The notes beneath the pieces are model-generated. The model searched no databases, was not told the DNA's origin, and saw only the letters and a program-made list of their open reading frames with translations. A stretch of DNA of 48,343 nucleotides from positions 1-48,343 of IMG/VR virus record IMGVR_UViG_3300013885_000007. One strand, written 5' to 3'. Below are positions 16,363 through 40,432 of this stretch, one piece after another. The translations under genes and the position numbers were made by a program. This DNA comes from a virus. Its lineage: Duplodnaviria; Caudoviricetes. Numbering within the stretch: the stretch's first letter is position 1; the number at the start of each line of letters is the position of its first letter.

Positions 16363-16888
16363 CTGGAACGGCCAGTACGTGATCAGGGAGCAGTTCCGCC
16401 CGATCGCCGAGGCCCTGGTAGCAAAGTACCCGGAACTGAAGCATATCCGGGTCGAGAAAATCCTGTTCGTGGCAAATACGACGGGTAGCGGCAAGAACAA
16501 GGACAAAAAGAAACTGGCCCAGGTTGCCACGATCCCGGCCAAATGGACGGAGATCCTCTATCAGTTGACCGGCCGCCAGTTCTCCTACCTGATGGAGTTC
16601 TTCACCCTCAACTGCAACGGCCTGCGGCGCGAGCAGTACATCGCTTTGGTATATCACGAACTGCTCCACATCGGGGTGGACGGGAAGCTGCGTTGCCACG
16701 ACATTGAAGACTGGAGCAACATGATCAACGGCCTGGGGCCTTTCTGGAATGAACAGTTAAGCGAGGATAAGGACTTTCCCGACTTACTGGCCGAGGATGT
16801 GGACTGGGACAAACTGATCGGGCAGCGAACGGTGCAGATGAGTATCGAGATCGGCACCGAGGAACGCAGATTGAGCATTGTGAAATAG
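16328..16888 (+). CDS. Putative phage metallopeptidase
   Basis: YHELLHI followed by HDIED. Confidence 0.75.
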   Translation: MKNMEDKIKTFDWNGQYVIREQFRPIAEALVAKYPELKHIRVEKILFVANTTGSGKNKDKKKLAQVATIPAKWTEILYQLTGRQFSYLMEFFTLNCNGLRREQYIALVYHELLHIGVDGKLRCHDIEDWSNMINGLGPFWNEQLSEDKDFPDLLAEDVDWDKLIGQRTVQMSIEIGTEERRLSIVK

Positions 16889-38082: not shown

Positions 38083-38619
38083 ATGCCGAACATTACTCAG
38101 TTTAGCCCGCATTCTGGGCGATATATCAAAGATGATGGTTCGGTCGTTAACCTGGCAGAGAAGATTGAGGCGATTTATAATGCTTTAATTGTTGGTAAAA
38201 ACGCCGGTGTTCAACTAACGGGCAGTAGTCTACTAGAAGCGCAAGCTCTATATATACAGAAAAAAGGGTGGGAAATAGTAGAATTATCTAATTCTGCTGG
38301 GGATACTATTGCTGCAAGTACAAGTAAAATTTACTGGCTAGCTAATCCTCGAAATATTGATGAAATTATAGTGCAATTCTTAGAAACTAATATGCTTGCT
38401 CATAGTAACCAAATGCAAATAGGCTATTATGCCCAAAATTCAGGAGTATCTTTAGAGTTTATTGATTTAATTCCTTCTGGTAATCGTCTTGCAGGAGTTA
38501 GTGGTTTTACTAGAGTGAAATATGTGAATAGTGGGGGATATTCTGTAGGTATTATTATTAAAAATAATGATACTGTAGATCATACATACCGGGTATATCT
38601 TTCTAAAAAATACCTGTAA
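38083..38619 (+). CDS. Putative virion accessory protein with an AT-rich C-terminal domain
   Basis: GGAGG RBS; composition shifts to AT-rich directly after the VQLTGS codons. Confidence 0.75.
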   Translation: MPNITQFSPHSGRYIKDDGSVVNLAEKIEAIYNALIVGKNAGVQLTGSSLLEAQALYIQKKGWEIVELSNSAGDTIAASTSKIYWLANPRNIDEIIVQFLETNMLAHSNQMQIGYYAQNSGVSLEFIDLIPSGNRLAGVSGFTRVKYVNSGGYSVGIIIKNNDTVDHTYRVYLSKKYL

Positions 38620-38839
38620 TGAGTAGGAGGGAATTTTTATGTTACCAGATGGGTTTAAAATTGACATAAATGGCTTTGTTATTTTAGAAGAAACAAAAAA
38701 CGGTCAAATCATAGCAAACCAAGAAGAAGTTGCTTCTCGTATAGCAGATAAAGAAAACCAAACCGGCAAATGGGCGGAATATATCAAACAATGGGAAGCA
38801 GAAGGTCTCATTTAAAAAGTCTATACAGCTAACGGGTGG
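38208..38839 (+). repeat. Imperfect direct repeats bounding the AT-rich cassette
   Basis: TGTTCAACTAACGGGCAG (38208-38225) and TATACAGCTAACGGGTGG (38822-38839): 13/18 identical with a shared CTAACGGG core. Confidence 0.5.
38639..38815 (+). CDS. 58-aa hypothetical protein (not in the ORF track)
   Basis: AGGAGGG RBS; MLPDGFKIDINGFVILEE...WEAEGLI. Confidence 0.75.
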   Translation: MLPDGFKIDINGFVILEETKNGQIIANQEEVASRIADKENQTGKWAEYIKQWEAEGLI

Positions 38840-38852
38840 CGATAGTTGAATA

Positions 38853-38878
38853 ATGAGGGGGAATCCATCCCCCCTCAT
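38853..38878. terminator. Hairpin at convergent gene ends
   Basis: ATGAGGGGGA...CCCCCTCAT. Confidence 0.55.
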
Positions 38879-39168
38879 TCCTTACCATCTTGGGGCTTGA
38901 ATCCGATTTCTTTTGGCTCGGGTTCCTTAATTTCGCCTTTTTCTATTGTGATACCCTGCAATCGAGCTAACAGTAAAATTATTGAAACCGTACATATTTG
39001 GCCCATTTGGGTTGAACCACCATCATAGCAACCTTTTCGGGCGTTCCCCAAAAACTCGCAAATCGGAACTGCTACACAATCGCCCTCTCTTTCAAAAAGT
39101 TTTATTGGTGTAAGGCGTGGCAATTCTAATTTTAAACTCGCAGGCCATTGATTTACTGTTTTGCTCAT
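38875..39168 (-). CDS. Hypothetical moron protein
   Basis: AAAGGAGGTG RBS on the minus strand; own sigmaH-like promoter. Confidence 0.7.
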   Translation of the reverse strand: MSKTVNQWPASLKLELPRLTPIKLFEREGDCVAVPICEFLGNARKGCYDGGSTQMGQICTVSIILLLARLQGITIEKGEIKEPEPKEIGFKPQDGKE

Positions 39169-39195
39169 AAAGAAACACCTCCTTTCACTGGGGAA

Positions 39196-39367
39196 ATTTC
39201 GACAAAAATATAGGAAATCCTGGTATTTATGGTTGTATTTTTCTTAGGCTTTTTTATTGGGATGATGACAAAAACCGGAATCGCCGAATGGTACTTTCGC
39301 CGTTTGCGGCTTCGTGATGGCTGCAAGCTAAAAGGAGGTATTTCGACACAACTATACAAAATCCTGG
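39196..39367 (-). promoter_or_regulatory. Two 28-bp repeats resembling sigmaH promoters
   Basis: 39196-39223 and 39340-39367 are 24/28 identical; minus strand reads AGGATTT...GTCGAAAT. Confidence 0.5.
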
Positions 39368-39371
39368 CAAA

Positions 39372-39419
39372 AGAACAAATGTTTTGGGTTTGACTTGTAT
39401 TTCCAGCGCATGGTATGGT
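39372..39419 (+). promoter_or_regulatory. LexA (SOS)-like box plus sigmaA promoter for the tyrosine recombinase
   Basis: GAAC-AAAT-GTTT (39373-39384) just upstream of TTGACT -18 bp- TG.TATGGT. Confidence 0.55.
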
Positions 39420-39426
39420 AATGTAG

Positions 39427-39528
39427 AAGCAGGCTAATCCGGCCTGATCAACCGGGTGAAAGGCGCTCCCGCAGGCGCTGCCTGCTTTTATCATCTGCGG
39501 GACCAAAAAATACCTTGCGGGAGGTATT
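39427..39528 (+). ncRNA. Structured RNA leader (three-way junction plus an SD-sequestering hairpin with complementary loops)
   Basis: Stems AAGCAGGC/GCCTGCTT, TCCGG/CCGGG, GCGC/GCGC and AATACCT/AGGTATT; loops CCCGCA and TGCGGG. Confidence 0.65.
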
Positions 39529-39534
39529 CATACC

Positions 39535-40374
39535 ATGCATCTCTCTGAAGCATGGTCTGCTTATGAAGCAGACAAGCGCTTGGCGGGGTATTCCCCGTAT
39601 ACCCTGAAGGCGTACAAACTCCAATCCGAACTTCTCACGAGACACATTGGTGACAAAGAACTTGCAGAAGTTACATTTGAGAATCTGAAGGCTTACCTGG
39701 CTGCTCAGGAGCATCTTAAACCGGCCAGCCTGGGTCACCGGGTAAGGTTTATCAAGTCGTTTTTCCGGTGGGCGCATGAGGAAGGCCTAATAATCGGCAA
39801 TCCAGCGGCGAAACTCCGGGAACCAAAAATGGGGAAAAGAATACCAAAACCCCTGCCGGAGGAAGATTTAGAATCTATCATTGCCTTCTGCCAATCTCCG
39901 TTAGAGCATGCCCTGGTAGAGTTTATCTTTACCACAGGCTGCCGAATCGGGGAAGTTTATGGGCTCAATCGACGGGACATTGACTGGGAAACGCGTTCGG
40001 TTATTGTCCGGGGCAAAGGAGATAAAGAGCGGGAAGTGTATTTTTCAATCCGGGCAGCTATTTGGCTGAAGAAATACTTAAAATCCAGAAAAGATGATTG
40101 TTCAGCCTTATTCGCAACGGAACGCCGCCCCTATCGCCGGATGAGTATAGCGCAGATGAGATATATCCTTAAGCGGGTGGCTCGTCGGGCTGACCTGACA
40201 ACGGGGATTTATCCACATAGGTTGCGCCATAGTTATGCGTGCCACATGCTGGAAAATGGTGCGCCGCTGGAACTCATCCAAACTTTGCTCGGCCACGAAA
40301 AATTAGAGACAACCCGCCTGTATGCGGCTCTATCAGGTCCACGCAGGCGTGAGTTATACCGGCGATATTTTTAA
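39535..40374 (+). CDS. XerC/D-like tyrosine recombinase
   Basis: SAM-like N-terminal domain; TGCRIGE, GKGDKER, HRLRH, LLGH, TT.LY: intact R-K-H-R-H-Y set. Confidence 0.95.
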   Translation: MHLSEAWSAYEADKRLAGYSPYTLKAYKLQSELLTRHIGDKELAEVTFENLKAYLAAQEHLKPASLGHRVRFIKSFFRWAHEEGLIIGNPAAKLREPKMGKRIPKPLPEEDLESIIAFCQSPLEHALVEFIFTTGCRIGEVYGLNRRDIDWETRSVIVRGKGDKEREVYFSIRAAIWLKKYLKSRKDDCSALFATERRPYRRMSIAQMRYILKRVARRADLTTGIYPHRLRHSYACHMLENGAPLELIQTLLGHEKLETTRLYAALSGPRRRELYRRYF

Positions 40375-40402
40375 CTTTGCTTACTTCCAATAAAGCATCA
40401 CT

Positions 40403-40432
40403 AACTGCTCCACAACGGGGCAGTTTGTATTT
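40403..40432 (+). terminator. Hairpin/terminator after the recombinase
   Basis: AACTGCTCC-ACAAC-GGGGCAGTT followed by TGTATTTT. Confidence 0.55.

Follow-up and report, generated by a model that had tools for sequence, protein, structure and literature searches.

A prophage recombinase leader with one antisense loop and two co-varying targets: a candidate self-counting translational brake related to int-alpA

In the current study, we analyzed the leader of a tyrosine recombinase gene in a 48,343-nt stretch of viral DNA (the window), which is an entire 48-kb provirus record. The leader (about 39426 to 39534) is predicted to fold as a three-way junction followed by a hairpin (P4), and its substitutions among relatives indicate that it is a real, strongly co-varying RNA element. 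One loop of the junction (loop 3) is complementary to two downstream sites, T1 and T2, the second of which lies on the ribosome-binding site (RBS), and loop and sites change together. We give about even chances to a model in which the leader is a two-target, self-counting brake on translation: a lone copy would park its loop on T1 and be on, and a second copy would cover T2 and turn translation off. The features are as follows.

39373 to 39384, plus strand: LexA/SOS-type box (GAAC-N4-GTTT), adjoining the -35 element at the left edge of the homologous cassette.
39390 to 39419, plus strand: predicted sigma-A promoter, with -35 TTGACT (39390) and extended -10 TG-N-TATGGT (39414-39419).
39409 to 39417, plus strand: 5' strand of P0, with 9/9 predicted pairs to 39529-39537 (start codon), only on transcripts starting upstream of the promoter.
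39427 to 39487, plus strand: three-way junction (-26.8 kcal/mol).
39427 to 39434 with 39480 to 39487, plus strand: P1, two-sided changes in 4/8 pairs.
39437 to 39442 with 39452 to 39457, plus strand: P2, two-sided changes in 7/7 pairs.
39443 to 39451, plus strand: loop 2, with palindrome TGATCA at 39445-39450 (2+6+1 layout), a candidate self-docking loop.
39462 to 39467 with 39474 to 39479, plus strand: P3, two-sided changes in 5/6 pairs, junction pair included.
39467 to 39474, plus strand: loop 3, the antisense loop, with CCCGCA at 39468-39473.
39495 to 39502, plus strand: T1, CTGCGGGA, the first target transcribed, an 8/8 match to loop 3 and a putative decoy.
39509 to 39528, plus strand: hairpin P4 (-7.9 kcal/mol), with T2 in its loop and the Shine-Dalgarno sequence in its 3' side.
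39515 to 39522, plus strand: T2, with TGCGGG at 39516-39521, overlapping the Shine-Dalgarno sequence GGGAGGT (39519-39525).
39535 to 40374, plus strand: tyrosine recombinase gene (279 aa), start codon at 39535, passing the Pfam Phage_integrase profile.
40403 to 40425, plus strand: terminator-like hairpin ending the cassette ahead of the major tail gene; similar hairpins lie 3' of the gene in relatives.

A first-pass annotation of this DNA had already placed the junction, loop 3, T1 and the RBS hairpin, and its coordinates are correct. The minimum free energy (MFE) and centroid structures agree on the three-way junction that it proposed, stems P1 to P3 co-vary, and the hairpin said to carry TGCGGG in its loop and to bury the Shine-Dalgarno sequence was confirmed in position and fold (in the MFE structure, a U-G pair narrows its loop to 4 nt). 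The fold of the window leader alone is unremarkable (z -1.7; 14/200 shuffles were equally good), beating its shuffles only modestly. The decisive support is comparative co-variation. The pairing score of the alignment was reached by 0/500 shuffles, a control that ignores kinship. P4 (helix 8) is 85.9% paired across the alignment, mostly with one-sided changes, and has two-sided changes in 1/6 pairs of the MAFFT alignment.

Homologues were collected by protein searches (the best 80 of 519 genome loci, plus 28 viral loci), by pattern scans, by a profile search (70 matches, 34 of them distinct, among 428 sequences) and by a covariance model run over 412 genome slots in three Bacillota groups, which retrieved further members beyond its training set. 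Bases of the promoter, of P1 or of the start region were fixed in the patterns, and loop 2, loop 3 and T1 were always left free; one pattern fixed the Shine-Dalgarno sequence beside T2. A two-target leader was present in 10/108 of the first recombinase loci, and most Bacillales recombinase homologues are without it. The final set comprises 42 distinct leaders. A full recombinase ORF is included in the retrieved DNA of 33, and most of the others are truncated by the end of the locus; where a host is named, it is Peptococcaceae or Syntrophomonas. Annotated phages gave no match to the leader of the window, and three DNA sequencing runs contained only short related pieces.

Two TGCGGGA sites within 49 nt downstream, as in the window, occurred in 0/20,000 base shuffles. 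The nearest upstream TGCGGGA is 1.6 kb away; both targets of the window's loop 3 lie downstream. A kissing-loop switch of the kind proposed for this leader should leave co-variation between the loop and both targets among homologues, and this is what we found: in 40/40 distinct two-target leaders, representing 10 loop 3 alleles, the leader's own loop 3 pairs with T1 and with T2 through at least six Watson-Crick bases, as it does in 32/32 leaders of an earlier set. When loops and targets were taken from different alleles, only 2.3% (T1) and 5.8% (T2) of 852 cases reached six bases, and permuting loops among the 32 leaders yielded 5.4 on average and at most 16 in 20,000 trials. Both counts exclude two distant leaders (L103:2722-2840 and L284:2676-2792), which have T2 only and no T1; these carry a U run after P1 and a P1-complementary segment, and possibly represent a different switch.

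Loop 3 also turns over rapidly. On an IQ-TREE tree of 33 recombinases (31 rows labelled for allele), its allele changed at least 18 times, and it differs in 5/8 well-supported sister pairs. Among these is the pair formed by the window and its closest relative, L081 (85% protein identity), which has the loop CCTGGA in place of CCCGCA and in which T1 and T2 are changed too. Block recombination could account for some of these switches. Such fast turnover fits a pressure to escape a resident trans-acting RNA.

The proposal that the loop chooses between a decoy and the RBS is well supported as anatomy by the layout of these sequences; the sign of the regulation cannot be read from them. T2 is always on the RBS, ending 9 to 14 nt before the start codon in 32/32 leaders, and T1 lies 18 to 23 nt from it. 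The match to loop 3 is longer at T1 than at T2 in 21 leaders, shorter in 2 and equal in 17, and pairing is stronger at T1 in 29 leaders versus 9 (sign test p 0.002, not corrected for kinship), so that T1 appears to behave like a decoy. The linker from P1 to T1 is 6 to 13 nt in 38/40 leaders, which by a rough estimate from helix dimensions would be long enough to cross the P1/P3 stack; the idea that T1 is unreachable in cis was dropped after linker lengths were counted. One leader (L197) has a linker of 1 nt.

A second code may reside in loop 2. This loop holds a perfect six-base palindrome in 37/42 leaders, built from five hexamers (TGATCA in 16, TAGCTA in 10, TCGCGA in 5, TCATGA in 3 and TAATTA in 3); the imperfect loops of the other five retain a four-base core in four cases and are degenerate in one. 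The palindrome changed at least 17 times on the recombinase tree, and its inner pairs show 17 and 15 two-sided changes among 32 rows. The palindrome persists although its hexamer takes five forms, and hexamers of different forms pair poorly with each other; we count both points in favor of docking between two loops 2. Being off-centre in its own stem, the palindrome is not the centre of a DNA palindrome. A cofold of two junctions (-67 versus 2 x -28.2 kcal/mol) was computed without a control and is not used as evidence. In one genome (G242), co-occurring copies differ in both loops, a difference expected by chance given this allele diversity.

Palindromic loops of this kind also occur outside the leader. 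A bare P2 hairpin with a TAGCTA loop is present in many phage contigs (L443, L460, L464, L471, L477, L478, L480, L486, L493, L509, L513 and L514, all at about position 901), with runs of A and T on its flanks, as in a two-way terminator, and without loop 3 or targets, and in L498 (about position 901, minus strand) a TAGCTA hairpin stands at the head of a larger, different branched leader. Our preferred model leaves the bare hairpins unexplained; they raise the question of a wider dimerization or protein-binding loop. A bulged hairpin with a TCGCGA loop lies just after a -10 box in L528, L529, L533, L536, L543, L547, L549, L551 and L552, where it is followed by a different second hairpin and belongs to a separate leader family.

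How might these parts work together? In the preferred model, release of LexA would let the promoter fire. The nascent junction would fold, and its loop 3 would first form a pseudoknot with T1, so that nothing but the weak P4 would cover the Shine-Dalgarno sequence; since T1 is made first, has the longer match, is stronger and is reachable, a lone transcript would park its loop there and be translatable. Junction RNAs without T1 (3'-trimmed or terminated) would accumulate and kiss loop 2 of new transcripts. There being no good U-tract after P1, such RNAs would need processing, which counts against the model. With the docked copy a second loop 3 would arrive, and whichever loop takes which site, T1 and T2 would both end covered and the Shine-Dalgarno sequence would be locked in P4. 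On late-operon read-through RNA the gene would be silenced by P0, a fold-back described below. As a result, a hazardous DNA-cutting enzyme would be made in a brief pulse specific to the allele. P4 CI, with seqA and seqC, is a precedent for an RNA that derives from a leader and has two targets (PMC4825925, accessible portion). Against the model we count the weak self-pairing of TAATTA (3/42 leaders; -0.4 kcal/mol), the five imperfect loops, the 1-nt linker of L197 and the absence of T1 from L103 and L284. We also count against it that ViennaRNA, which cannot model kisses, often pairs T1 and T2 elsewhere within the leader (mean unpaired values of 0.33 for T1 and 0.47 for T2).

The same parts can be read in other ways. 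The best of these, to which we assign a clearly smaller though still substantial chance, dispenses with a second RNA: T1 would catch loop 3 co-transcriptionally and a T2 kiss would then lock P4, so that each transcript would be translated briefly, or at a low fixed rate. By rough geometry both sites are reachable in cis, T2 is located in a hairpin loop, relatives with a short P2 have no palindrome, and L103 and L284 retain T2 only, all of which suit such a cis-only timer or dampener. It does not explain the co-varying palindrome or the fast turnover of alleles, however, and T1 is usually the stronger site as a simple duplex (stacking within a kiss lies outside that calculation).

A rather unlikely reading reverses the sign. 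Here a lone transcript would be off through a loop 3-T2 kiss in cis, and dimerization by loop 2 would free the RBS by shifting the loops to T1, so that enzyme production would require many transcripts or many phage genomes. This arrangement, which needs the same parts list as the preferred model, would be useful for homing enzymes that require many genome copies; it fits the short linker of L197, and it resembles IsrK, a short RNA that activates its own read-through mRNA in trans (PMC4825925, in the text available). Yet a lone RNA should choose T1, which precedes T2 in the transcript and is usually the stronger site, and a second copy without T1 would bring a free loop that would cover T2.

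Less probable again is control of transcription in the manner of P4 CI, in which loop-target pairing would cause premature termination instead of a translation block. CI terminates transcription through two targets (PMC4825925, accessible text), the window has TTTT after P1 (with a terminator-like call at 39462-39485), and L103 has a long U run. Nevertheless, the position of T2 just before the start codon in 32/32 leaders speaks for translation, and U-tracts are weak in most homologues (0 to 6 U in the 8 nt 3' of P1, mostly 3 to 4, in 40 leaders). Finally, the three matching sites and the palindrome could be sites in DNA or single-stranded DNA at which a repressor or the downstream enzyme binds, as in the I-TevI operator, T1 and T2 being direct repeats near a promoter and T4 intron nucleases being known to autorepress at operators (PMC2988022, available portion), but this is very improbable because recombinases that are 85% identical use different alleles, alleles are common to both recombinase clades, the same layout precedes unrelated nucleases, the pairings tolerate G-U throughout and the palindrome does not sit at the centre of its stem.

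In favor of the self-counting brake, we also count the result of P2-hairpin pattern scans that carried no loop 3 or target information. Of their 85 distinct matches, 23 had both promoter and junction; the remainder lacked a -10 box (41) or a junction (18) or were too short (3). Two sites were present in 20 of the 23, where 0.67 were expected. The genes behind these leaders encode HNH or GIY-YIG homing endonucleases, and recombinases in four cases (L516, already known as a recombinase homologue, offers too little sequence for a profile match). One leader (L432) heads a gene for a DnaD-like replication protein, another (L441) precedes a GIY-YIG gene that has a piece of a tape-measure-like gene on either side, and in the cultured phage vB_CpeS-1181 such a leader lies between two terminase pieces. 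Judged from sequence, then, the module is portable, with the same fold before homing endonucleases, recombinases and replication initiators. We more tentatively advance the broader view that it is a portable, homodimerizing RNA counter in which a palindromic kiss joins two junctions and thereby clamps tandem copies of one target. If so, two independent codes, one of 5 docking palindromes and one of at least 10 antisense alleles, would provide a private, protein-free control of copy number or superinfection for selfish phage genes such as recombinases, HNH and GIY-YIG nucleases and replication initiators. Were trans action and palindrome docking both true, this would be a bacterial antisense system that counts transcripts by dimerization, reused before many hazardous mobile genes and a natural source of orthogonal translational regulators of about 110 nt.

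The recombinase subtype has two further features, an SOS-type box and a fold-back on read-through RNA. GAAC-N4-GTTC with at most one mismatch occurs 53 to 57 nt before P1 in 29/42 leaders and in 0/41 and 0/42 controls. The window carries at its promoter a GAAC-N4-GTTC/T box of the kind expected of the Bacillota LexA regulon, and its box is a clostridial motif used in PMC4234289 (accessible portion); LexA would probably bind at 39373-39384. The promoter call alone is within chance (3 found, 3.1 expected), and the -10 columns are invariant in alignment A2 partly because the search patterns fixed them. Transcription presumably starts near 39426.

P0 (helix 1) is 95.8% paired, with G-U tolerated, and at least 8/9 pairs form in 33/40 leaders, its 5' arm being partly fixed by the search patterns. 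The predicted cost of opening the start is 9.96 kcal/mol with the real upstream sequence, 2.5 with shuffled upstream sequence and 1.15 on the leader's own transcript for the 40 leaders, and 4.0, 2.3 and 1.4, a small effect, for the window. By the same prediction, real upstream sequence beats all 8 shuffles in 33/40 recombinase leaders (weakly in the window). In the 13 nuclease leaders P0 was not seen, real upstream sequence beats the shuffles in 2/13, and an SOS box was found in 0/13. Comparable hiding of a start on read-through RNA is known as fold-back inhibition in IS10. The RBS-sequestering hairpins of T4 I-TevI/II/III, segB and Aeh1 mobE are likewise built with an internal promoter inside the 5' arm, so that the start is hidden on read-through RNA only (PMC2988022, accessible text); P0 differs from the I-TevI type in that the junction lies between its arms, which are separated by 110 nt.

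The recombinase gene is part of the late operon and shares its strand; its neighbours are the tail terminator and major tail genes. It is not the phage's integrase, which is a serine integrase at 1-1545, but a moron-like, spare recombinase gene of the prophage. Its product has R137, K164, H228, R231, H254 and Y263, which we take to be the catalytic residues, and falls below the NCBIfam cut-offs for XerC (199.6 versus 220 bits), XerD (197.5 versus 335) and XerA (182.3 versus 330). Homology with relatives by blastn spans about 39372, the left edge of the cassette, to the end of the gene. The location of the cassette in relatives varies among head-tail, tail and lysis genes (95/161 neighbouring ORFs scanned), and no alpA-like match was found among the ORFs scanned. 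A substrate of the recombinase was not found, there being no tRNA or attachment-like repeat around the cassette.

Several other observations concern these surroundings. A low-GC insert (31 to 42%) at 38083-39370, 5' of the cassette, holds three ORFs and a hairpin (38849-38880). The ORFs encode 178, 58 and, on the minus strand, 97 aa; the start of the 178-aa ORF is similar to L237 DNA, and none of the three has a profile match. Variable fibre-like genes are often upstream of these recombinases, and in L337 (50-799) a reverse transcriptase gene lies immediately 5' of a recombinase cassette. Positions 40397-40420 and 16653-16676 of the window are identical at 22/24 bases (E 0.024), probably by chance.

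Among named RNA families, the leader is closest to int-alpA (Rfam RF02996). The window scores 30.9 bits (E 6e-5; model positions 1-71 at 39427-39501) in a 201-nt scan, below the gathering cut-off of 35.8 bits; a gathering-level scan and a 1.7-kb E-value scan lost the match to filters. Two homologues pass the cut-off (L001, 35.9 bits; L431, 37.8 bits), and others fall below it (L081, 31.3; L115, 27.2; L368, 27.2); an int-alpA match fell on the recombinase leader in 2/10 genomes holding one. The two share the three-way junction, the conserved junction bases and the P1/P3 layout, and the loop of the Rfam consensus is complementary to its own 3' tail at the position of T1, so that part of the loop-T1 pairing may already be annotated for int-alpA. 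They differ in P2, which is short in int-alpA (4 pairs, a loop of about 5 nt) and here has 6 to 7 pairs and a 7- to 9-nt palindromic loop, and the int-alpA model ends at T1, with T2, P4 and P0 outside it. The name int-alpA implies a position beside integrase and alpA genes. Here, in contrast, the leader is directly 5' of the recombinase gene, between tail genes, and heads an SOS-boxed recombinase gene in Bacillota phages. The motif is reportedly due to Weinberg et al. 2017. It is not named in the main text of PMC5737381.

Four other int-alpA matches (47.3 to 32.7 bits, one above the cut-off) have two sites by inspection, and among 18 viral int-alpA-like junctions with a short P2, two sites are present in 6 and a palindrome in 0. 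(That set had 98 distinct matches, 80 of which were not parsed as junctions or were too short; 14/18 are from one phage clade.) The two-target logic therefore looks general to int-alpA, at least in these sequences, with the palindrome marking a long-P2 subtype. Docking is accordingly not essential to the core of the element, which counts against the preferred model. Other int-alpA matches (L685; L687 in G209; L689 in G153; L690 in G132) lie before ORFs that by eye are nuclease-, replication- or ParB-like, and loop 3 differs among all three family members in G209. A conserved 138-aa gene in a clade of ~44-kb phages is preceded by an int-alpA-like junction whose target, AACCA, is present once or twice (L564, L576, L578, L580, L582, L585 and related loci, at about position 701). 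The gene seems similar to those for tail assembly chaperones; if it is one, the motif would have an unusual target here.

The first-pass annotation had likened the leader to the P1 C4 and P4 CI RNAs. The logic is alike, but membership did not hold up: an Rfam search gave the sub-threshold int-alpA match and no C4 or c4-2 match in the window or in 60 scanned sources of related loci. C4 and CI are allele-specific, as in heteroimmunity. Like P1/P7 C4 and P4 CI (Rfam C4 RF01695 and c4-a1b1), the leader would be an allele-specific, branched RNA that pairs through unpaired segments with repeated targets in its own transcript. However, C4 carries a pair of non-identical antisense regions, a' and b' (PMC2864571, supplement 6, available portion), and the two targets of CI, seqA and seqC, lie up- and downstream of it (PMC4825925, accessible portion), whereas here there are one antisense loop, downstream targets only, a palindromic second loop and no antirepressor gene. 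With IsrK of Salmonella Gifsy-1 the model shares a 5' part of an mRNA that acts in trans on translation of that mRNA; IsrK activates by strand invasion, arises at a terminator and has no two-target loop-loop code (PMC4825925, accessible text). We found no published "xerDC motif"; the mention of xerDC in PMC2864571 refers to the STAXI motif, a different repeat pseudoknot. We found no description of this mechanism in the literature searched, which excludes most subscription papers, and the viral structured-RNA catalogue of PMC10690425, in its accessible part, may hold the element as an unnamed candidate.

What is new here is the recombinase subtype with its SOS box and read-through fold-back, the allele turnover on the tree and the bias of decoy over RBS. 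The palindromic loop 2, the nuclease leaders and the int-alpA match, together with the box and fold-back, also go beyond the earlier annotation. The dimerization initiation loop of HIV-1 has a six-base palindrome off-centre in a 9-nt loop (2+6+1), the layout of loop 2, although the origin is unrelated and dimerization is only predicted here. On present sequence comparison, we conclude that the leader is a long-P2, recombinase-linked variant of int-alpA and not a member of the C4/CI group. A precise, testable mechanism is thereby offered for the orphan int-alpA motif, whose Rfam model stops half-way, at the putative decoy.
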